A DNA stretch of 63,905 bases, counting the filler, from Folioceros fuciformis (taxonomy: Eukaryota), in assembly GCA_049999805.1 (NCBI GenBank). It is 5 parts of 5 records of this genome, joined end to end, with 100 filler letters (N's around TTAATTAATTAA, not from the genome) between each part and the next. Parts side by side here need not be neighbours in the genome. Positions count along the whole stretch, not along the records: positions 17,573 to 40,188 come from JBNGIO010006130.1; 4 more parts are not named here. The stretch is one strand, 5' to 3'. Shown piece by piece: positions 17,473 through 60,631 of the stretch. The notes beneath the pieces are model-generated. The model saw only the letters and a list, made by a program, of their open reading frames with translations, ran no database searches and was not told where the DNA came from. The position numbers were made by a program, and so were the translations under genes. The first letter of the stretch is position 1; each line of letters begins with the position of its first letter.

Positions 17473-17572
17473 NNNNNNNNNNNNNNNNNNNNNNNNNNNN
17501 NNNNNNNNNNNNNNNNTTAATTAATTAANNNNNNNNNNNNNNNNNNNNNNNNNNNNNNNNNNNNNNNNNNNN
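17473..17572. other. Artificial scaffold-joining linker (N44-TTAATTAATTAA-N44)
   Basis: Palindromic all-frame stop linker centred in a 100-nt N block. Identical structure recurs four times. Confidence 0.95.
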
Positions 17573-18612: not shown

Positions 18613-21012
18613 ATGGCCACAGTTCGCCAGGTACTGGACCTTGTGTGTACCCAACAAATTTCAATTAACATGCGTGCCAGGACTCCGCCGGAAGCTCCCG
18701 CTCGCCCCGTCTTGGGGAGTCAACCCATGGCAAGCAAAGCCTCCAGGAGCAGGGGTGTACTGAGTCCAGCGCTTCCACTTCCGGTGACTCGTGTGGGAAG
18801 GGACGGGTTTTCCACCGATGGTCGGTGCCAGGAGCAGGAGCACTTGTGGCAGCAATTTTTTCTGGACCCTTCCTTGTGGTTGGACAACAGACGAGATAAG
18901 AAGAGCTCGCATTGGCCTGACTTCCGGCGTAAAGGGTCCGATGAGGTTCTGTGGGTGAACAGCATGTTCAAACCAGATTGGGTTGATGAGCAGCTGGTTT
19001 CGTTGGATATGCTGATGGGTCGTGGTCCCTCTCCTTCCGAGTCCTCGTCTCCGGATAAGCCTCAACCTGACAGGCGTTCGGGATCGGACACGAGCGTCGT
19101 AACTGTTGCTACCGTGACGATGTTATGTCAGCAGGGGAGACTTTCTGAGGCCGTTGGTGCCCTGGAATCTCTGGCGCACACGCACTCTGCTGTTTCCCTG
19201 TCTATCTTCTGCACCTTGCTAAAACTCTGTACAGCCAAGAAGGATTTGGTCGTGGGGCGACGAGTTCACAATCTCAGCGTCAAACTTGGTTACGATTCGA
19301 TTCCATACGTGGGGAACCATATCCTGCGTATGTATGCAAGTGGGGACAGGCTAGAGGAGGCCATGGATGTGTTCACCAGAACAGGCAAGCCAGACGTTTT
19401 TGCCTGGTCTTCCATCATCTCTGCCCATGCTAAACATGGGAAATCTATCGAGGCAGTGAAACTGTACCACGAGATGGTTAGGTCAGGATTGAAGGCGGAT
19501 GCGCACGTCTTTGTAGCTGTGCTACAAGCCTGCGCGTTTGCTGGGGACTTGGAATCTGGCAGAAAAGTGCACTTGGATGTGGTGCAGAGCGGCATTCCCA
19601 CTAACTTGTTTGTTGGCAACTGCCTGGTGGACATGTATGCCAAATGTGGCAAAATGAAAGATGCACGCCATGTTTTTGACAGCATGGCCTCGAAGGATGT
19701 GGTGACATGGACGGTGCTGATTGCTGGGTATGCCAAATCTGGTGCACTGAAAGATGCACGCCAGATCTTTGACAGCATGGAGACGAAGAATGTGGTGACA
19801 TGGAATGCCCTGATAGCTGGGTATGCCCAGCAAGGGCTCGGTCATGAAGCGCTTGTTTTGCATGGACAAATGGAGCGGGAGGGCATCATTTTGGCTGACC
19901 ATGTTACTTTCGGTTGCCTTTTAAGAGCCTGTGCAAGCACGGGTGCCCTACAGAAGGGCATGCAACTGCACTCGCAGGCTGTCCAAAGGGGACTGCTGGA
20001 TGACGTTATGGTGGGCAACTGCCTGGTGGACATGTATGCCAAATGTGGCGAAGTGGAAGATGCGCGCCAGGTTTTCGACAGCATGGCCGCCAAGGATGTT
20101 GTGACGTGGAACGTCCTGATTGCTGGATATGGTGCTTGCGATGAAGGTTACAAGGCACTAGATTGTTTTGAGGAGATGTTAGTTGCCGGAGTTCAGCCTA
20201 ATGATGCCACTTTTACTGGCCTTTTAGTAGCATGCAGTCACGGGGGACTGGTCCACGAGGGTCGCAATCACCTTCTTGCCATGGCACAACAGCATGGCAT
20301 CAATCCGTCTGTTGAGCATTACACGTGCATGATTGATGTCCTTGGGCGTGCTGGTCGTTTAGATGAAGCAAAGGAGATGTTGTTGTCATGTGAGGGCCAG
20401 ACTGATGTCGTGGCATTGACGACTTTGCTGAACGCCTGCAAGTGCCACGGGGACGTACAGGGGGCGAAGTGGTGTTTTGAGAGCATTGTGAAACTGGACC
20501 CTCAGCAGGCGTCTGCATATTTGCTCATGGCCAGGACGTTTGCGGATGCAGGTAGGTGGGCTGATGTAGATAGGATTGAAACACTGCGGATGGCAGCAGG
20601 AGCTAACAAGAAACCTGCAGTGGTGACTATTGAGGTGAATAAGGAGGTACATAGATTTGTGGTGGGAGAACGGAGAGACGATATTGCGTTCAAGGTAGAG
20701 AGCACGAATGCACGTGTGAAGCGTGAAGGGGGCCATGTACCTCACACAAAGCTGGTGTTAAAGCCAGTTTGTGAGAAGGAAAAGGAAGATGCTCTTTGTG
20801 GGCATGCTGAGAAGTTAGCTCTGGCGTTTGGTCTCTTGAACACTCCGAATGGGACACCTCTGGTGGTAACGAAGAATCTTCGCATGTGTAGCGACTGCCA
20901 CAGTTCCACGGAGATCATTTCAAAGCTCGAACAGAGAAACATTGTTGTCAGAGATGGGTACCGTGTGCATCGATTTGCAAACGGTGGTTGCACTTGTGAC
21001 GGTCGACCGTGA
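18613..21012 (+). CDS. PLS-class PPR protein with DYW:KP (GRP-type) domain and N-terminal PDF-like motif; candidate U-to-C editing factor
   Basis: Intronless 799-aa ORF with about 12 P/L/S motifs and E1/E2, then KKPAVVTIEVNKEVHRF, HAEKLA, CSDCH and terminal CTCDGRP. Confidence 0.93.
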   Translation: MATVRQVLDLVCTQQISINMRARTPPEAPARPVLGSQPMASKASRSRGVLSPALPLPVTRVGRDGFSTDGRCQEQEHLWQQFFLDPSLWLDNRRDKKSSHWPDFRRKGSDEVLWVNSMFKPDWVDEQLVSLDMLMGRGPSPSESSSPDKPQPDRRSGSDTSVVTVATVTMLCQQGRLSEAVGALESLAHTHSAVSLSIFCTLLKLCTAKKDLVVGRRVHNLSVKLGYDSIPYVGNHILRMYASGDRLEEAMDVFTRTGKPDVFAWSSIISAHAKHGKSIEAVKLYHEMVRSGLKADAHVFVAVLQACAFAGDLESGRKVHLDVVQSGIPTNLFVGNCLVDMYAKCGKMKDARHVFDSMASKDVVTWTVLIAGYAKSGALKDARQIFDSMETKNVVTWNALIAGYAQQGLGHEALVLHGQMEREGIILADHVTFGCLLRACASTGALQKGMQLHSQAVQRGLLDDVMVGNCLVDMYAKCGEVEDARQVFDSMAAKDVVTWNVLIAGYGACDEGYKALDCFEEMLVAGVQPNDATFTGLLVACSHGGLVHEGRNHLLAMAQQHGINPSVEHYTCMIDVLGRAGRLDEAKEMLLSCEGQTDVVALTTLLNACKCHGDVQGAKWCFESIVKLDPQQASAYLLMARTFADAGRWADVDRIETLRMAAGANKKPAVVTIEVNKEVHRFVVGERRDDIAFKVESTNARVKREGGHVPHTKLVLKPVCEKEKEDALCGHAEKLALAFGLLNTPNGTPLVVTKNLRMCSDCHSSTEIISKLEQRNIVVRDGYRVHRFANGGCTCDGRP

Positions 21013-40188: not shown

Positions 40189-40288
40189 NNNNNNNNNNNN
40201 NNNNNNNNNNNNNNNNNNNNNNNNNNNNNNNNTTAATTAATTAANNNNNNNNNNNNNNNNNNNNNNNNNNNNNNNNNNNNNNNNNNNN
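40189..40288. other. Artificial scaffold-joining linker
   Basis: N44-TTAATTAATTAA-N44. Confidence 0.95.
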
Positions 40289-48776: not shown

Positions 48777-49701
48777 TTGATTTGTTGGTCTAGCGTGGAC
48801 ACTGGTAGTCGCAAGTTGATAAAGCTTACACCAACCCTCTCAATACATTATTATTTCATTAAAAAGTTATTATCCATCTGCATATTGATCTGCCTATATA
48901 TCTAGATTATAAAAATAGATATGCTCATTGTCAGTGAGGTCCGCTGCAGCTTGTTTATCGACTGTGGACCAAGACACCTGAAGCTTTCTGAACATCTCTG
49001 TGCGGGGTTGCCTTGATCATTCAGAATACCAAGTAAATGACTAGAACCTGAACTCTGCTGAATGCTTTTGCAGCCAACAGTTGTGACGAGCATGTATGCA
49101 AGGTGTGGCAACTACGGATTTGCAGAAGGCCTTAAGGGGACGGACTTGGTCACAAGGATGTGAGTGATGTGCAATGCCATGCCGCCAGGGTACACTTAGC
49201 AAGGCATGGGAGAGGAAGCCTTGTGGCTAGTGCCCTTCATGAGATGTCGAGGCATTCCTCAGGAAGGTTTCTCAAATCTTCACGCGTGACCATATCACTC
49301 TCTTTCCCATATATCTCGACTGTGGGGGAATCTTGTACTTCGCGTAGTATCAAGCTCTGTCGTAGAAGTGAACATTCCACCGACTGTCACCGGCGACATA
49401 CGCTTGCTAGCATTAGTGTATGCTGCATGGGTACTGGAGATCACATGGTGCAGCACCGACTGTACTGGGGCCAGACTCGGAGAATCAAGGGTGCTGCTCC
49501 GGGGGCTAGCCTTCGCAAACCACAGGTGTGTCATGACACGAGCACATGTACAAAGCGGGAGGTGATGCTGGGATGTTGTGTATGCTTCTGTGCTCTCTCC
49601 CTCCTACTGACGCCAGTTAATGACCTCTTGTGCGCCATAGATGGTTGCCCAGGGTGAGCCCAGCGACGGGTCGGTGCCTATTGCACCCATACCTACAAGG
49701 T

Positions 49702-52700
49702 ATGGGTGCCTGGAGCATGCTCGCAGGTATTCTGGTCAGAGGTCCCGCCCAGCATACCCCAAGGAATCAACGCTTGACGAGCAGCCAAGCCGCCAGATGC
49801 AGTACCCTTGTAAGAAGGCCAGCCCGTCCTACAGCTGGAGACGGATCGTGCAGCGAGAGTCGTCGGCAGGCGGCCCTGTGGCGGCAATTCTTTAGAGATC
49901 CTGCTCTTTGGCGGGATTGCAGGCACCGCAAGAAGAGGGCTTGTTGGCCTGACTTCCGCCATCGGGAAACTCGGGAGGTGCTCTGGCTGAATAGTCTGTA
50001 TAAGCCAGAATGGGTGGATGCGCAGCTTGCTGCTCTGGATAGGAAGGTGGGTCGTCCTGAACCTCATGGGCTTGCTGGATTTGCCAGGGGCGTGATGGCT
50101 GAGGTTGTGAGCAAGCTCTGTCAGCAGGGTCGGCTCAGTGAGGCTGTCCAGGCGTTGGGAGCTCTGGTGCAGACAGAATGTTGGATTCCCGTCTCTCTCT
50201 TTTGTGCTGTCTTAAAGAAATGTGTGGTGGAGAAGGATCTCGCTCTGGGTCGCCTTGTGCATGCTTTGACAGTGAAAAGAGGATATCAGTCCGACACGTT
50301 CCTGGGCACTCGTATCGTTCGGATGTATGCTTCCCTTGGCAGATTGCAAGACGCAATGGATGTTTTTGCAGGAATTGCAGAACCCGATGTCTTCACGTGG
50401 TCTGCTGTGATTACTGCGAATGTTAAATACGGGCAAGACATGCAGGCTATAGAACTGTATCATCGGATGCGCAGGTCAAGTGTGAAACCTGATGGCCATG
50501 TGTTTGTGCCAGCCCTTCAGGCTTGTGCGAGGGTGTCGGACTTGAAAACCGGGCACCAGCTGCATGCTGATGTTCTGGCCAGTGACGTTGAACCTGATCT
50601 GTTTGTATCTGCTTGCTTGGTGACTATGTACGCAAAGTGTGGCAGCTTGGAGGACGCTCGGAGAGTGTTCGATGAGCTTGGTGTGAAAGATGTGGTGACA
50701 TGGACTGCTCTCATTGCAGGGTACTCCCAGCGGGGCATGGGGCAGGAAGCCCTTGGTGTTTACAGTGCTATGCAAGAAGAAGGCATCGCTGTCCCCAACT
50801 CTGTGACATTCGTGTGCCTCCTGCAGGCATGTGCAATGGTGGGCTCATCAGCGTTGGAAAAGGGGAAGCAGCTGCATGAACAAATAAGGGAACGAGGATA
50901 TGAAGGTTATCTGATCGTAGCCAACTGTTTGGTCAGCATGTACTCAAAGTGTGGCAGCATAGAGGATGCTCAGAGGGTGTTTGATGGACTTGTCCAGAAG
51001 GATGTAGTGTCATGGAATTCCATAATAGCAGGGTGTTCCCAGAAAGGTATGGTGCAGAAAGCCTTTCTGCTCTACAGTACCATGCAAGAAGAAGGCATGT
51101 GTGAACCAGATTCTGTGACATTTGTGTGCCTCTTGCAGGCATGTGCAAGTGTGGGCACCTTAGCTTTGGAGAAGGGGAAGGAGCTGCATGAACAAATTAG
51201 AGTGGGAGGACATGAAGCTGATGTCCTTATAGCCAAGAGTTTGATTACAATGTATGCAAAATGTGGCAATGTGAAGGATGCACAGAAAGTGTTTGACAGA
51301 GTAGGTCGAAAAGATCTGGTGACTTGGAATGCCATGATCGCAGGGTTTGCCCAGCAGGGCATGGGACAGGAGGCTCTTGATCTCCACAGTATGATGAAAG
51401 AGGATGGCATCATTGTACCAGATTCCAGCACATTTATGTTTCTCCTGCAGGCTTGTGCAAGCTTAGGCACCCCAGCCTTGGAGAAGGGGAAGCAGCTTCA
51501 CGCGGAAATCAGAGGAAGAGAACATCAAGCTGATGGGTTTATAGCCAACACTTTGGTGAACATGTATGCAAAGTGTGGCAGCCTAGAGGATGCTCAGAGG
51601 GTGTTTGACGCACTGGGTCAGAAGGATGTGGTGACCTGGAATGCCATGATTGCAGGATATTCCCAGCAGGGCATGGGACTGGAAGCTCTTCAACTGTACA
51701 GTGCTATGCGAGATGAAGGGATTGCTGTCCCGGATGGTGTGACATTTGTGTGCCTGCTGCAGGCATGTGCCAATGTGGGCTCCTCAGCTCTTGATATGGG
51801 GAAGGAGCTTCATGCACAAATCGGAAAAGGGGCACATCAAGCTGATGGGTTTGTAGCGAGCAGTTTGGTGAATATGTATGGAAAGTGTGGCAGCTTGAAA
51901 GATGCACAGGCTGTGTTTGATGGACTTGGTGAAAAAGATGTGGTGACGTGGACTGCTCTAATTGCAGGGTATTCCCAACAGGGTATGGGACAGGAAGCTC
52001 TTCGTCTCTACAATGCTATGCGAGAAGAAGGCATCGCTGTACCTGACTTGGTGACGTTTGTAAGTCTCCTGCAGGCTTGTGCAAGCGTAGGCACGTCAGC
52101 TTTGGAGATGGGAAAGCAGTTTCATTTGCAAATTAGAGAACGAGGATATCTAGCTGATGTGTTTGTGGCCAGCAGTTTGGTGAATATGTATGCAAAGTGT
52201 GGCAGCATGGAGGATGCTCAGACTCTGTTTGACGGACTTGGTTCAAAAGAGGTTGTGACATGGACCACCCTAATTGCAGGGTATGCCCAGCAGGGCATGG
52301 GGCAGGAAGCACTTTGCCTCTACAGTGCTATGCAAGAAGCAGGCATCGCTGTCCCTGATTCAGTGACATTTGTGTGCCTCCTGCAGGCATGTGCAAGTGT
52401 CGGCAGGCCAGCTTTAGAGAAGGGGAAGGAGATTCATGTACAAGTTAGAGAACGAGAACTTCAGGCTGATGTGTTCATAGTCAGCAGTCTAGTGAACATG
52501 TATGCAAAATGTGGCAGCTTGGAAGAGGCTGTGAGACTTTTCAAAGAACTTGACAAAAAAGAGGTGGTGACATGGACTGCTCTAATTGCAGCTTACTCCC
52601 AGCAGGGCATGGGGCAGGAGGCTCTCCGTCTTCACCATGATATGCAGGAGGAGGGGATAGCGGTTGCTGATTCTGTGACATTTGTGTGCCTCCTAAAGGC

Positions 52701-54399
52701 ATGTGCAAGTGTGGGTGCCCCAGCTTTGGAGAAGGGAAAGCAGATTCATGCACGGATTAGGGAATTAGGGTACGAATCGGATAATTTCCTAGCCAACGGT
52801 CTGGTTAGTATGTATGCAAAGTGTGGCAGCCTACAGGACGCTCAGGTGGTGTTTGATGCACTTGGTCAAAAAGATGTTGTGTCGTGGAATGCAATGATAG
52901 CAGCATGTTCTCAAGAGGGGATGGGTCGGGAAGCACTTCATCTCTACAGCGTTATGCAAGAAGAAGGCATAGCTGAACCAAATTCTGTGACGTTTGTATG
53001 TCTGCTGCAGGCATGTGCAAGTGTGGGGTCTCCAGGTTTGGAGATGGGGAAGCAGCTTCACGCACAAATCAGCAGACGTGGATATCAAGCTGAAGGCTTT
53101 GTACAAAGCAGTCTGGTAAACATGTATGCAAAATGTGGCAGCCTACAGGAGGCCCACAGAACTTTTGATGGACTTGGCCAAAAAGACATAGTGACGTGGA
53201 ATGCCTTGATAGCCGGTTATTCCCAGCAGGGCATGGGTCAGGAAGCTCTTCGTCTTTATAATACTATGCAGGAAGAAGGCAGCGCGGTACCCAATGTAGT
53301 CACATTCATGTGCCTCCTGCATGCATGTGCAAATGTGGCAGCTTTGCATCTGGGAAGGCAGATCCATGCACAGGTTGAAGAAAAGGGCTTTCAAACTAAT
53401 GAGTTCGTGGCCAGCAGTTTGATAAACATGTACGGAAAATCTGGGAGCATGGTTGATGCACAGCAGGTATTTGATGCGTTGCCAGAAAAAGACGTGTCTG
53501 CCTGGAGTGCACTGATTTCAGGTTACAGTTCTCATGGAGAGAGTGAAGTGGTATTCGACTTGGTCCACAAAATGAGCAAGGATGGCATACAGCCAGTTGG
53601 CATTACGTTCCTGAGTATATTAGCAGTCTGCAGCCACGTGGGCTTGGTGAACAAGGGCACAGAGTATTTTGAAGCTATGAGCAAACGCTACCACATCACA
53701 CCCACTGTGGAGCACTACACGTGCATGGTAGATCTCTTGGGCCGCGCAGGCAGACTGGATGAAGCACTAGCTTTGGTAAGAAGAATGCCTGTGCTGCCTA
53801 ACGCTGCAGTTTGGCACACTCTGTTGGGTGCTTGTCAAAAGTGGAGCAACATGGAAGTGGGATGCTATGCCTTTGACCAGGCAATGAAGTTAGATAGGAA
53901 AGATTCCGCAGCTTATGCACTGATGTCGAACATATACACTGCTGCCCAGATGTGGGAGCAGGCACAAAACGTGCAGGCCCGCAGAGTAAGGTTTAGGGCA
54001 TGGAAGCACCCAGGTCAGAGCTGGTGGACAGACATGGGCGGACAGGTGCATAGCTTTTTGGTTGGCGCTGAGGAGCATTCCAAGAGTGAGGCCAGCCTCA
54101 AACGGCCATTATCCAAAATGAAAGGGAACGAGTATGTGGCAAATGTGCACTTGTCACCGCTAGACGTATCTCAAGTTAGAAAGGAATTTCATTGGTGTGG
54201 CCATGCCAAGATGGTTGCTACTGCATATGCCTTAAACAAGACGGCCGATGCCATTATACTTGTTGTGAGAAGTCTGCAGTTTTCTGCCGACGGTGACACT
54301 GCCTCAAAGTACGTTCTGGCAGTGGAGGAACCACCTTTAATCTGCAGGGATGCATTTGAAAGGCATCCATTCCCTCCGCAGCTGAGCCGATTGTGCTGA
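49702..54399 (+). CDS. Very long PLS-class PPR protein with N-terminal PDF-like motif and degenerate DYW:WW domain
   Basis: Intronless ORF (first ATG 49702) with 11 S-motif MYxKCG-type repeats at about 104-aa period, E1/E2 and WKHPGQSWWTD. The deaminase motifs read GHAKMV and FSADGD. Confidence 0.92.
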   Translation: MGAWSMLAGILVRGPAQHTPRNQRLTSSQAARCSTLVRRPARPTAGDGSCSESRRQAALWRQFFRDPALWRDCRHRKKRACWPDFRHRETREVLWLNSLYKPEWVDAQLAALDRKVGRPEPHGLAGFARGVMAEVVSKLCQQGRLSEAVQALGALVQTECWIPVSLFCAVLKKCVVEKDLALGRLVHALTVKRGYQSDTFLGTRIVRMYASLGRLQDAMDVFAGIAEPDVFTWSAVITANVKYGQDMQAIELYHRMRRSSVKPDGHVFVPALQACARVSDLKTGHQLHADVLASDVEPDLFVSACLVTMYAKCGSLEDARRVFDELGVKDVVTWTALIAGYSQRGMGQEALGVYSAMQEEGIAVPNSVTFVCLLQACAMVGSSALEKGKQLHEQIRERGYEGYLIVANCLVSMYSKCGSIEDAQRVFDGLVQKDVVSWNSIIAGCSQKGMVQKAFLLYSTMQEEGMCEPDSVTFVCLLQACASVGTLALEKGKELHEQIRVGGHEADVLIAKSLITMYAKCGNVKDAQKVFDRVGRKDLVTWNAMIAGFAQQGMGQEALDLHSMMKEDGIIVPDSSTFMFLLQACASLGTPALEKGKQLHAEIRGREHQADGFIANTLVNMYAKCGSLEDAQRVFDALGQKDVVTWNAMIAGYSQQGMGLEALQLYSAMRDEGIAVPDGVTFVCLLQACANVGSSALDMGKELHAQIGKGAHQADGFVASSLVNMYGKCGSLKDAQAVFDGLGEKDVVTWTALIAGYSQQGMGQEALRLYNAMREEGIAVPDLVTFVSLLQACASVGTSALEMGKQFHLQIRERGYLADVFVASSLVNMYAKCGSMEDAQTLFDGLGSKEVVTWTTLIAGYAQQGMGQEALCLYSAMQEAGIAVPDSVTFVCLLQACASVGRPALEKGKEIHVQVRERELQADVFIVSSLVNMYAKCGSLEEAVRLFKELDKKEVVTWTALIAAYSQQGMGQEALRLHHDMQEEGIAVADSVTFVCLLKACASVGAPALEKGKQIHARIRELGYESDNFLANGLVSMYAKCGSLQDAQVVFDALGQKDVVSWNAMIAACSQEGMGREALHLYSVMQEEGIAEPNSVTFVCLLQACASVGSPGLEMGKQLHAQISRRGYQAEGFVQSSLVNMYAKCGSLQEAHRTFDGLGQKDIVTWNALIAGYSQQGMGQEALRLYNTMQEEGSAVPNVVTFMCLLHACANVAALHLGRQIHAQVEEKGFQTNEFVASSLINMYGKSGSMVDAQQVFDALPEKDVSAWSALISGYSSHGESEVVFDLVHKMSKDGIQPVGITFLSILAVCSHVGLVNKGTEYFEAMSKRYHITPTVEHYTCMVDLLGRAGRLDEALALVRRMPVLPNAAVWHTLLGACQKWSNMEVGCYAFDQAMKLDRKDSAAYALMSNIYTAAQMWEQAQNVQARRVRFRAWKHPGQSWWTDMGGQVHSFLVGAEEHSKSEASLKRPLSKMKGNEYVANVHLSPLDVSQVRKEFHWCGHAKMVATAYALNKTADAIILVVRSLQFSADGDTASKYVLAVEEPPLICRDAFERHPFPPQLSRLC

Positions 54400-54829
54400 T
54401 TCTCAGTGGAAACTGCCTGATGGTTCCTTGCATGTTCGCTCCTGAGATTTGAAGACGCTGCATGTCTTGAAATTTTGTCAAAACTGCATTCCATGTAACA
54501 TGCCAGAAGAAGGGCTACAGGCCATGAAAAGTTTGAGACCCAAAATATGCACATGACATGGACACTGGAGAGTGCCTTTGCACGCATTGATCGTAGACGT
54601 CAACCCCACAACATCGGTTTGAGCGTCTCATGATGATATGCCGTTCGCTGCCTCACTTGTGACTTCCATCACAAACCGCCACACCCAGATATCAGGGCAT
54701 TCAATGTTACCAATCCCTTCGTGACCAAGCGGTTAAAGGCCCACGACCCCCGACACCTGGCATAAATGTCCGCCAGGCAGTTCGCAACCACTATATTTCC
54801 TAGACTACCTCCTCACAACCTGGGGACTC

Positions 54830-56654: not shown

Positions 56655-56754
56655 NNNNNNNNNNNNNNNNNNNNNNNNNNNNNNNNNNNNNNNNNNNNTT
56701 AATTAATTAANNNNNNNNNNNNNNNNNNNNNNNNNNNNNNNNNNNNNNNNNNNN
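56655..56754. other. Artificial scaffold-joining linker
   Basis: N44-TTAATTAATTAA-N44. Confidence 0.95.
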
Positions 56755-57300: not shown

Positions 57301-60300
57301 TCATGGTCGACCCTTACAACTGCAACAACCATTTGCGAATCGATGCACACGGTACCCATCCCTCACAACAATGTCTCTCTGCTCAAGCCTTGACATGATC
57401 GCCGTGGAGCTGTGGCAATCACTGCACATGCGTAGATTCTTGGTTACCATCAGAGGTGTCCCATTCGGAGTGTTCAACAGACCAAACGCCAGAGCTAGCT
57501 TCTCAGCATGCCCGCAAAGCACATCTTCCTTTTCCTTCTCACTCAGTGGCTTCAACACCAACTTTGTGTGAGGTACGTGGCCTCCTTCCTGCTTCACACG
57601 CGCATTCGTGCTTTCTACCTTAAGCGCAATATCCTTTCTCCTTTCTCCCACCAGAAATCTGTGTACCTCCTTATTCACCTCAATGCTTGCCACTGCTGGC
57701 TTCTTCTTAGCTGCTGTTGCCTTTCTCTGTGTTTCAATCCTGTCTACATCGGTCCACCTACCTGCATCTGCATAGGCATTGGCCATGAGAACATAGGCAG
57801 GTGCCTTCTGGGGGTCCAGCCTAACAATGCTTTCAAAACACCACACAGCCTTCTCTAGATCTCCGTGACTTTTGCAGGCATTCAACAAAGATGTCAAACA
57901 CACCACATCACTTTGGCCCTCACATGATAATAGCATCCTCTTTGCCTCATCTAATTGGCCAGCACGCCCAAGAAGATCAATCATGCAGGTGTGATGCTCA
58001 ACAGAAGGTATGACACCATGCTGTTCAGCCATGGAATCAAAGAGCTTGCGACCCTCCTGGACCAGACCCCCATGACTGCATGCCACTAGAAGGCAAGTAA
58101 AAGTAGCATCGTCAGGATGAACACCGGCAGCTAACATCTCCTCAAAACAAGCTAGCGCCTTGCGACCTTCATCACAAGCACCATACCCAGCAATCAGGGC
58201 TGTCCATGTAACCACATCTTTAGTGGCCATGCTGTCGAAAACCTGGCGTGCATCTTCCAGCTCACCACATTTTGCATACATGTCCACCAGGCAGGTTCCC
58301 ACCACTACATCATCCAGCAGACCTCTGTTGACAATCTGTGAGTGCAGCTCCTTGCCTTTCTGCAAGGCACCAGTGCTTCCACATGCGTTCAGAAGGCAAG
58401 CAAAAGTAACATCATCAGCCAAAACGAGGCCTGCCTCCTCCATCTGTCCGTACACAACAAGCGCCTCTTGGCCGAGTCCTTGCTGTGCATACCCAGCAAT
58501 CACGGCATTCCATGTAACCACATTCTTTGTGTTCATGCTGTCAAAAACCTGGCGTGCATCTTCCAGCTTACCACATTTTGCATACATGTCCACCAGGCAG
58601 GTTCCCACCACTACATCATCCAGCAGACCTCTGTGGACAATCTGTGAGTGAAGCTCCCTGCCCTTCTGCAAGGCACCAGTGCTTCCACACGCGTTCAGAA
58701 GGCAAACAAAAGTAACATCATTAGCCAAAACGAGGCCTGCCTCCTCCATCTGTCCATACACAACAAGCGCCTCTTGGCCGAGTCCTTGCTGTGCATACCC
58801 AGCAATCAGGGCCGTCCATGTCACCACATCCTTCGAGGCCATGCTCTCAAAAACCTGGCGTGCAGATGCCAGCTCACCACATTTTGCATACATGTCCACC
58901 AGGCAGGTTCCCACCACTACATCATCCAGCAGACCTCTGTGGACAATCTGGGAGTGAAGCTCCCTGCCCTTCTGCAAGGCACCAGTGCTTGCACACGCCT
59001 TCAGAAGGCAAGCAAAAGTAACATTATTAGCCAAAATGAGGCCTGCTTCCTCCATCTGCCCATACACAACAAGCGCCTCTTGGCCGAGTCCTTGCTGTGC
59101 ATACCCAGCGATCAGGGCTGTCCATGTCACCACATCCTTCGAGGCCATGCCGTCGAAAACCTGGCGGGCACCTTCCAGCTCACCACATTTTGCATACATG
59201 TCCACCAGGCAGTTTCCCACCACTATATTATCCAGCAGTTCTCTCTTGACAATCTGTGAGTGAAGCTCCCTGCCCTTCTGCAAGGCACCAGTGCTTCCAC
59301 ACGCCTTCAGAAGGCAAGCAAAAGTAACACAGTCAGCCAATACGACGCCTGCCTGCTCCATCTCTCCATACACGACAAGGGCCTCTTGGCCGAGTCCTTG
59401 CTGTGCATACCCAGCGATCAGGGCATTCCATGTCACCACATCCTTCGTGTTCATGCTATCAAAAACCTGGCGTGCATCTTTCATTCGGCCACATTTTGCA
59501 TACATGTCCACCAAGCAGCTGTTAACAAACAAGTCAGTACGGAAGCCACTGCGCAACGCGTCGCGGTGCACTGTTCTGCCAGATTCTAAGTCGGCAGCAA
59601 ATGCACAAGCTTGAAGGGCGGCTACAAAGACATAACCATCCGCCTTCACTTCTGACCTACGCATTTCATGGTACAGTTGTATGGCCTCCTTCGGCTTCCC
59701 GTGCTTAGCATGTGCAGAGATTATGGAAAACCACATGAAGACATTCGGTTTCCCTACCCTGTTGAACACATCCATCGCCTCCTTTAGCCTACCTCCACAT
59801 GCATACATGCGCAAGATATGGTTGCCCAAATATGCATTCGACTCGTACCCAAGTTTGACAGTGAGATCATGAACTCGTCGCCCAACCACCAAATCCTTCT
59901 TAGCTGTACAGAGTTTTAACACTGTGTAAAACAGAGACTGACAAGCGCCAGAGTCTGACTGCACCAGAGATTCCAGGGCTCCAACGGCCTCAGAAAGCTT
60001 CCCCTGATGACATAACATGCTAACGGTTGCAGCAGTTACGACGCCCGTTTCCAATTCTGCACGCCTGCCAGATCCACGCTTATACAGAGAGCTGCACTCG
60101 AGAGAATAAACTCCATGGCCCATTGAATGTGGAAGTGCTGGGTTTCTTACAATGCTGCCCCTGGAGCCCATTTCACCACCTGTACGCCTTCCAGGTTCAG
60201 GATGATCTGGAGAGCTCAAGTTGGAAGGAGAGGAACCGAGACCCATCTGCATATCCAAGGAGACGAGTTGCTCATCAACCCAAGCTGGCTTAAACCTGTT

Positions 60301-60531
60301 GTTCAACCACAGCACGTCGCCGGACCCCTGACGGCGGAAGTCAGGGGAACGGGAGCTCTTCTTGTCTCGTCTGTTATCCCACCACATGGTAGGGTCCAGA
60401 AAAAGTTGTTGCCACAAGTGCTCCTGCTGCTCCTGGCAACTACCAGCATCGTCGGAAAACCCGTCCCTGCCCACACACGTTCTAGTTCTCGGAGGTGGAA
60501 GTGCTGGGCTCCTGACACTGCTGCACCTGGA
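57301..60531 (-). CDS. PLS-class PPR protein with DYW:KP (GRP-type) domain and N-terminal PDF-like motif; 5'-truncated by scaffold end
   Basis: The frame is open up to the gap (SRCSSVRSPALP...VGRDGF). About 20 P/L/S motifs, then KKPAVASIEVNKEVHRF, HAEKLA, CSDCH and terminal CSCKGRP. Confidence 0.93.
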   Translation of the reverse strand, partial: SRCSSVRSPALPPPRTRTCVGRDGFSDDAGSCQEQQEHLWQQLFLDPTMWWDNRRDKKSSRSPDFRRQGSGDVLWLNNRFKPAWVDEQLVSLDMQMGLGSSPSNLSSPDHPEPGRRTGGEMGSRGSIVRNPALPHSMGHGVYSLECSSLYKRGSGRRAELETGVVTAATVSMLCHQGKLSEAVGALESLVQSDSGACQSLFYTVLKLCTAKKDLVVGRRVHDLTVKLGYESNAYLGNHILRMYACGGRLKEAMDVFNRVGKPNVFMWFSIISAHAKHGKPKEAIQLYHEMRRSEVKADGYVFVAALQACAFAADLESGRTVHRDALRSGFRTDLFVNSCLVDMYAKCGRMKDARQVFDSMNTKDVVTWNALIAGYAQQGLGQEALVVYGEMEQAGVVLADCVTFACLLKACGSTGALQKGRELHSQIVKRELLDNIVVGNCLVDMYAKCGELEGARQVFDGMASKDVVTWTALIAGYAQQGLGQEALVVYGQMEEAGLILANNVTFACLLKACASTGALQKGRELHSQIVHRGLLDDVVVGTCLVDMYAKCGELASARQVFESMASKDVVTWTALIAGYAQQGLGQEALVVYGQMEEAGLVLANDVTFVCLLNACGSTGALQKGRELHSQIVHRGLLDDVVVGTCLVDMYAKCGKLEDARQVFDSMNTKNVVTWNAVIAGYAQQGLGQEALVVYGQMEEAGLVLADDVTFACLLNACGSTGALQKGKELHSQIVNRGLLDDVVVGTCLVDMYAKCGELEDARQVFDSMATKDVVTWTALIAGYGACDEGRKALACFEEMLAAGVHPDDATFTCLLVACSHGGLVQEGRKLFDSMAEQHGVIPSVEHHTCMIDLLGRAGQLDEAKRMLLSCEGQSDVVCLTSLLNACKSHGDLEKAVWCFESIVRLDPQKAPAYVLMANAYADAGRWTDVDRIETQRKATAAKKKPAVASIEVNKEVHRFLVGERRKDIALKVESTNARVKQEGGHVPHTKLVLKPLSEKEKEDVLCGHAEKLALAFGLLNTPNGTPLMVTKNLRMCSDCHSSTAIMSRLEQRDIVVRDGYRVHRFANGCCSCKGRP

Positions 60532-60631
60532 NNNNNNNNNNNNNNNNNNNNNNNNNNNNNNNNNNNNNNNNNNNNTTAATTAATTAANNNNNNNNNNNNN
60601 NNNNNNNNNNNNNNNNNNNNNNNNNNNNNNN
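60532..60631. other. Artificial scaffold-joining linker
   Basis: N44-TTAATTAATTAA-N44. Confidence 0.95.

Follow-up and report, generated by a model that had tools for sequence, protein, structure and literature searches.

Three PPR genes with a common N-terminal block

The subject of this analysis is a 63,905 nt stretch of DNA from Folioceros fuciformis (GenBank assembly GCA_049999805.1), hereafter called the window, which contains three genes for pentatricopeptide repeat (PPR) proteins of the PLS class. The specificity of RNA editing in plant organelles is conferred by PLS-class PPR proteins, from which programmable C-to-U and U-to-C editors are being engineered. Each of the three genes carries, in frame inside one uninterrupted long open reading frame (ORF) and upstream of the PPR array, the same block of 55 aa, which we refer to as the PDF motif for its likeness to the motif of that name in the single-stranded DNA binders of organelles known as OSB proteins. 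A preliminary description of the window had reported this block from three PLS genes on three scaffolds, and our translations matched the peptides quoted there exactly.

The window is a chain of scaffolds with separators of the form N44-TTAATTAATTAA-N44 at 17473-17572, 40189-40288, 56655-56754 and 60532-60631; at least five scaffolds are joined in it, and the remaining N runs, which measure 10 or 100 bases, represent ordinary gaps. Since the separators lie between scaffolds, the three PDF-PPR genes sit on three scaffolds. A six-frame scan of the window (1302 ORFs of at least 30 aa) with a profile made from the block yielded no copies beyond those of the three genes (E 4e-36 to 9e-35), the next match having an E-value of 0.037, and a scan for PPR sequences showed that all three PPR genes of the window bear the block, the only other PPR match being a fragment of 47 aa. 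The presence of a PDF-PPR gene on each of three small scaffolds suggests that the F. fuciformis genome holds a large family of such genes.

Gene 1 (18613-21012, plus strand) is a single ORF of 799 aa that encodes a presequence, the PDF motif, a linker, a PLS PPR array, an E motif and a DYW domain, the last of which has a KP-type box and terminates in GRP. The stretch before the motif (18613-18843, plus strand), a putative organelle-targeting peptide, measures 77 aa from M1 or 39 aa from M39, and its 77 residues include 10 R+K, 6 D+E and 19 S+T+A. It is followed by PDF motif copy 1 (18844-19008, plus strand; residues 78-132), as located by translation and profile scans, and by a Ser/Pro-rich linker (19009-19104, plus strand), which was delimited from the predicted model and the comparison of the paralogues and leads to the first PPR helix. 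Pfam identified PPR families, an E_motif at residues 612-674 and a DYW_deaminase domain (PF14432) at residues 707-797 with 110.8 bits, the latter corresponding to the KP-type domain at 20731-21003 (plus strand). No Pfam match at E ≤ 1 was obtained in the N-terminal 196 residues.

Gene 2 (49702-54399, plus strand) has its first ATG at 49702 within an ORF of 1589 aa that spans 49630-54399 (plus strand) and, according to this ORF and to Pfam, encodes a presequence, the PDF motif, a long PLS PPR array, an E motif and a degenerate DYW-like end. The stretch before the block comprises 58 aa, and PDF motif copy 2 was placed at 49876-50040 (plus strand) by translation and profile scans. The C-terminal end (54133-54372, plus strand) is degenerate by both Pfam score and translation: DYW_deaminase scored 22.5 bits, under the Pfam cutoff of 24, HAK stands where HxE is expected and CxDCH is missing. 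Judging from these features, gene 2 may either encode a catalytically dead long PLS protein or represent a gene whose end is decaying. Close downstream of gene 2, on the opposite strand (54672-54812, minus), lies the 47-aa PPR-like ORF fragment, which matched the PPR part of gene 1 at E 4.8e-06.

Gene 3 (57301-60531, minus strand) encodes, according to ORF and Pfam analysis, the PDF motif, a linker of about 95 aa, a PLS PPR array, an E motif and a DYW domain of KP type with a GRP end, for which Pfam DYW_deaminase scored 117.6 bits. The gene is 5'-truncated at the end of its scaffold, where the ORF meets the N run at 60532. PDF motif copy 3 was found by translation and profile scans at 60253-60417 (minus strand).

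Pfam PPR families and an E_motif, the latter located after the PPR array, are present in all three window genes. Genes 1 and 3 contain the DYW zinc-binding signatures HxE and CxxCH, visible in translation as HAEKLA and CSDCH, which gene 2 lacks. Moreover, a KP-type box (KKPAVV and KKPAVA) and the ends DGRP and KGRP can be read straight from the translations of genes 1 and 3, respectively. In the DYW:KP subtype (PMC9478123), a KP box replaces the PG box and the protein ends otherwise than in DYW; by sequence, genes 1 and 3 belong to this subtype. The earlier claim that the motif occurs on both C-terminal types is borne out only partly: genes 1 and 3 have full KP-type domains, but in gene 2 the box is PG-like and the DYW domain degenerate. 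By their domain content, the window proteins are PLS-class PPR-E-DYW proteins with an extra N-terminal domain, and editing at RNA sites is an activity only predicted for them.

Sequence comparison revealed that the presequence, the ends of the linker and the first PPR helices are common to the three window genes, and that the length of the linker varies widely among them, from about 20 to about 95 aa. Because these parts are shared, the comparison identifies the three genes as paralogues from one fused ancestor. Hence, the wording "three independent genes" used previously is appropriate for three separate paralogous genes, but not for three independent fusion events.

Identity and predicted fold of the block

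Across the three copies, 28 of the 55 columns of the block are invariant (L1 W2 Q4 F6 D8 P9 W12 D14 R16 K19 K20 P25 D26 F27 R28 V35 L36 W37 N39 K43 P44 W46 V47 D48 Q50 L51 L54 D55). A profile of the three copies, searched by HMMER against 1.84 billion representative proteins, retrieved 682 proteins at E ≤ 1e-3, of which 193 reached E ≤ 1e-10 and 20 reached E ≤ 1e-30. Proteins already named as OSBs were among these matches, including a "protein OSB1, mitochondrial-like" of Populus nigra (P0053, E 1.2e-20) and a "protein OSB3, chloroplastic/mitochondrial-like" of Chenopodium quinoa (P0014), and a second search, with a profile of PPR-linked copies, also listed many angiosperm proteins named OSB1, OSB2 and OSB3. 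Many matches are 340-470 aa long and have two to four copies close to the C-terminus. Pfam SSB was found above cutoff and N-terminal of the motif in all ten single-copy matches without PPR that were analyzed, which is the OSB architecture, and in ten multi-copy or otherwise unusual matches it was above cutoff in two, below cutoff in five and absent from three, one of these being a kinesin model.

The identification was also tested in the reverse direction, as the preliminary description had proposed. For this, 65 motif segments, taken from 30 proteins with a Pfam SSB match or an OSB1/2/3 name, were aligned with MAFFT to build an OSB-only profile, with the window sequences excluded; the segment boundaries came from a scan with a PPR-derived profile. 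The OSB-only profile recovered the blocks of gene 3 (E 4.4e-21), gene 2 (E 3.6e-19) and gene 1 (E 2.2e-18), the next ORF of the window having an E-value of 2.4. Furthermore, the 80%/50% consensus of the PPR-linked copies (LW..fF.dPs.WwDnR..K.....PDFrhK.t.e.LWlns..kP.WVd..la.l) is nearly identical to that of the single-copy OSB-type copies (lWq.FFanP..WWDNR..K.np.yPDFkHK.TgeaLW...r.nP.WV.sqL..ld). The PDF signature given for the motif is thus borne out, but its K-x4-PDF spacing is not, the conserved form being K-x5-PDF (or KK-x4-PDF).

Taken in both directions, the profile homology makes it almost certain that the 55-aa block is an authentic PDF motif as borne by OSB proteins. Chance similarity to OSB motifs is ruled out by the E-values, and chimeric gene models are ruled out for the window genes, each of which consists of one ORF. 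The block is not covered by any model in Pfam, and no match at E ≤ 1 was obtained for the three blocks. A word-index search scored one of 210 candidates with the three-copy profile and none with residues 66-140 of gene 1, results that reflect a limit of the word index and are no measure of rarity. According to the accessible text of reviews, the PDF motif comprises about 50 aa, is named after Pro-Asp-Phe and is both responsible and sufficient for single-stranded DNA binding in AtOSB1, and OSB1 and OSB2 favour single-stranded DNA over RNA.

The window proteins share with the OSBs an organellar context and a domain of about 55 aa with the signature LW..F..P..WWDNR..K.....PDF.HK......LW.....P.WV, the copy number of which is variable in both groups, with one to three copies in the PPR proteins and one to five in the OSBs as reported in the accessible text of PMC13393729. 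In contrast, OSBs have a central SSB-like OB fold and C-terminal PDF motifs, whereas in the window proteins the motif is N-terminal (residues 78-132 of 799 in gene 1) and followed by the PPR array, the E motif and the DYW domain. Pfam gave no SSB match at E ≤ 1, either for gene 1 or for the N-terminal parts of genes 1 and 3. Since the SSB-like domain is missing and the motif is N-terminal, the window proteins are not members of the OSB family and share with it the domain alone.

An AlphaFold2 model of gene 1 residues 70-140 (alignment of 42 rows) had a mean pLDDT of 90.5 and a pTM of 0.76, and the fold predicted for the block consists of a helix (3-15), short strands (20-22, 35-37 and 43-44) and a second helix (55-65). 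In a longer model of gene 1 (residues 1-330, alignment of 20 rows), the PDF module reached a pLDDT of 89-95 and the PPR helices from residue 165 were above 90, with values of 33-56 for residues 1-65 and below 50 for residues 140-157. Organellar presequences look basic, rich in Ser, Thr and Ala and poor in acidic residues. The stretch before the block is likewise basic and Ser/Thr/Ala-rich with few acidic residues in genes 1 and 2, and we infer from this composition that it is an organelle-targeting peptide. Comparison of the block between paralogues gave a dN/dS of 0.16 for copies 1 and 3 as well as for copies 2 and 3 (Nei-Gojobori), synonymous sites being saturated between copies 1 and 2; the block is under purifying selection between the paralogues. 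On the indirect evidence that the block folds in the model, is under selection and is preceded by a stretch of such composition, it is unlikely to be lost along with the transit peptide.

None of the solved structures compared with the model of the block was alike, which, the domain being small, is weak evidence for a fold without a solved representative. When solved structures were searched by sequence with an algal protein of four motifs as the query, nothing relevant was found, the best match being hnRNP L at E 0.91. Phage gp49-like clusters, the best structural candidates in the ESM Atlas (score 0.83), were rejected as kin because their similarity is at chance level.

PDF-PPR proteins in other plants

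The combination of PDF motif and PPR array is not restricted to the window. Among the 150 best representatives retrieved with the three-copy profile, 18 contained a PPR array, for which the PPR part of gene 1 served as the probe; two of these also matched the gene 1 DYW domain. Thirteen of the 18 were labelled with a species, namely Diphasiastrum complanatum (3), Selaginella moellendorffii (1), Ceratopteris richardii (2), Adiantum capillus-veneris (2), Sphagnum compactum (1) and, as transcriptome ORFs, Pteridium aquilinum (4), so that among these top-ranked matches 13 of 13 came from non-seed plants. The Pteridium ORFs carry PDF and PPR sequences in one frame. A second profile, built from 17 PPR-linked copies, gave 568 matches at E ≤ 1e-3 among 5698 candidates, and PPR Pfam families were present in 38 of the best 120 of these 568 matches, with at least 35 distinct loci in D. 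complanatum. The bit scores of the listed Diphasiastrum loci point to two or three PDF copies each.

PDF and PPR sequences occurred together in 66 sequences (isoforms counted), which had one copy of the motif in 20 cases, two in 37, three in eight and four in one. All copies were situated on the N-terminal side of the PPR span in 64 sequences, the two exceptions being P0217, which looks like two merged neighbour genes, and the fragment P0199, in which the PPR alignment overlaps the motif. Spacing was determined for 50 PDF-PPR proteins, counting only copies of at least 40 bits and leaving out P0217 and the isoform rows P0154-P0202: the median distances were 69.5 aa before the first copy, 26 aa between copies and 20 aa (range 5-87) from the last copy to the PPR span. 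In the domain tree of PDF copies (87 rows by 55 columns), 3 of 84 branches were starred. On this evidence from sequence we could show that PDF-PPR is an old, selected and widespread architecture, in which each protein has between one and three copies and which is found in lycophytes, ferns and at least one moss.

The C-terminal parts of these proteins are diverse. In the ten of the 18 PDF-PPR proteins that were analyzed with Pfam, PPR families were found in all ten, an E motif in four and a DYW domain in two. Since the motif is carried by PPR proteins with differing C-termini, including relatives with an E motif only and relatives with no E or DYW match, it is not specific to U-to-C factors, in agreement with what had been proposed from the window alone. 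The nearest relative of gene 1, P0081 (753 aa), is 50% identical over the full length and has a like architecture and a like KP-type end, but its motif (residues 84-140) is partly eroded, with RDF in place of PDF and an insertion of two residues, showing that conservation of the motif is not absolute within the family.

Described PLS editing factors, including the DYW:KP type for which a role in U-to-C editing has been proposed (PMC9478123), share with the window proteins the PLS array, the E motif and the DYW domain. In contrast to the window proteins, they are drawn in the accessible parts of the literature as a targeting peptide followed by the PPR array, with no mention of an N-terminal PDF domain. 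A description of a PDF-PPR fusion was not found in the accessible parts of the literature searched, although supplementary tables of domain architectures might list such proteins. In the accessible text of a 2026 paper on OSB evolution (PMC13393729) the terms PPR and pentatricopeptide occur 0 times, as do OSB and single-stranded in that of a 2026 survey of editing factors and domain fusions (PMC13386178), and an N-terminal domain is not mentioned in the accessible text of PMC12548569. PDF-PPR thus appears to be a known domain in a widespread architecture that is new as far as the literature searched goes, an earlier mention in print being possible.

The searches also returned PDF proteins of other kinds. 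Several consist almost wholly of tandem PDF motifs (P0004, P0005, P0006, P0007 and P0203), among them the 383-aa P0004 of the volvocine alga Astrephomene gubernaculifera, which has four copies and for which no SSB match was reported, and 9-12 copies are present in proteins of Kingdonia and other assemblies. As judged from such proteins, the PDF domain clearly has an existence outside the OSB architecture. P0108 (EukProt symbB.v1.2.025011, 276 aa) has three PDF motifs and a gene-model name of a dinoflagellate (Symbiodinium type). If it is not a contamination, the motif would not be strictly of green plants, to which the accessible parts of reviews confine it. Three further models combine PDF motifs with other sequences, i.e., with a kinesin motor in P0070 (Coptis chinensis, 1526 aa), with an "interactor of constitutive active ROPs" model in P0030 (Striga hermonthica, 1063 aa) and in the order PDF-PPR-PDF-PPR in P0217 (Diphasiastrum, 1362 aa), and are most likely neighbour genes fused by gene prediction.

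Possible functions of the PDF module

The polarity of PPR proteins is such that the 5' end of the RNA element is recognized by the N-terminal repeats, with the DYW domain acting on the base that lies a few nucleotides 3' of the last repeat. If the PDF module remains on the mature organellar protein and, tethered beside the N-terminal repeats, binds single-stranded nucleic acid without sequence preference, it would, at a distance of 5-87 aa from the first repeat, be able to contact RNA immediately upstream of the PPR footprint. There it would raise affinity or avidity on the upstream RNA and help to hold this stretch single-stranded, and extra copies of the motif would provide extra avidity, similarly to what has been proposed for OSBs. 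We consider it fairly probable, and the most likely of the readings, that the PDF module serves as such an auxiliary, sequence-unspecific single-strand binder, its avidity being set by the number of copies.

The closest functional analogy is found in the RRM-PPR fusions, of which maize PPR4 is the classic case and in which a general single-stranded nucleic-acid-binding domain is likewise joined to a PPR tract. They differ from PDF-PPR proteins in that the domain is an RRM and not a PDF motif, in being mostly of the P class and in being seen by Pfam. RRM-PPR fusions are numerous across Archaeplastida according to the accessible text of PMC13386178.

Alternatively, the module might bind single-stranded DNA in transcription bubbles, R-loops or replication and recombination intermediates, concentrating the editor on the organellar nucleoid and coupling editing to transcription. 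This would be in line with the preference of OSB motifs for single-stranded DNA cited above, with the conserved residues of the OSB copies being retained in the PPR-linked copies, and with a flexible linker of 5 to 87 aa, as a tether should have. However, PPR proteins already bind RNA at high affinity, and many linkers are very short (20 aa at the median, 5 aa at the minimum), which puts the module at the RNA-binding groove. We regard a role as a DNA tether as the main alternative, possible but rather unlikely.

It has also to be considered whether the PDF domain binds protein and not nucleic acid, driving oligomerization or recruiting partners such as OSBs or further editing factors. A review reports AtOSB2 as tetrameric without stating which part mediates assembly, but the reviews, as far as accessible, assign DNA binding and not assembly to the motif, and nothing in our analysis points to self-association. 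A complex prediction with two copies of the module scored 0.02, which gives no answer and was counted neither way. We consider a protein-protein module improbable.

That the block has no function of its own, whether as part of a targeting sequence that is cleaved off, as a relic in decay or as an artefact of assembly or of gene prediction, might be suspected from its position 39-77 aa from the N-terminus, from the degenerate DYW of gene 2, by which not all carriers are necessarily active enzymes, and from the RDF of P0081, but is largely refuted and very improbable given the uninterrupted ORFs of three genes on three scaffolds, the low dN/dS, the confident fold of the block but not of the stretch preceding it, and its conservation from a moss to ferns and presence in fern transcripts, as targeting peptides are not conserved in such a way.

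Returning to the auxiliary single-strand binder, a further comparison can be made with the MORF/RIP helpers of seed-plant editosomes, which may boost the RNA binding of PLS PPR proteins in an analogous manner. Unlike the PDF module, MORF/RIP helpers are separate proteins of unrelated fold that bind the PPR array. MORF genes are confined to seed plants according to the accessible text of PMC13386178, and the distributions of PDF-PPR and MORF may thus be complementary, which can serve as a lead only, because just the top-ranked matches of each search were inspected. We speculated that in heavily editing lineages without MORF (lycophytes, ferns and some mosses) a large share of PLS factors could bring their own OSB-derived binder, enabling them to work without a helper, an idea that we regard as distinctly doubtful. 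Such factors might act by holding open the RNA upstream of the site, or by docking on the single-stranded DNA of the transcription bubble, which would make editing co-transcriptional, and in a bolder form of this idea some PDF-PPR-DYW proteins would act on single-stranded DNA or R-loops.

In conclusion, dozens of natural PLS factors bear an accessory domain of predicted nucleic-acid binding that has hitherto been unannotated because Pfam has no model for it. The PDF module is a testable candidate for how lycophytes, ferns and mosses edit without MORF, and it may also serve as an addition to synthetic editors. Moreover, the PDF domain, so far a hallmark of the OSB recombination-surveillance proteins, would gain a wider use, as the PDF-PPR architecture ties a module of DNA maintenance to the RNA-editing machinery.

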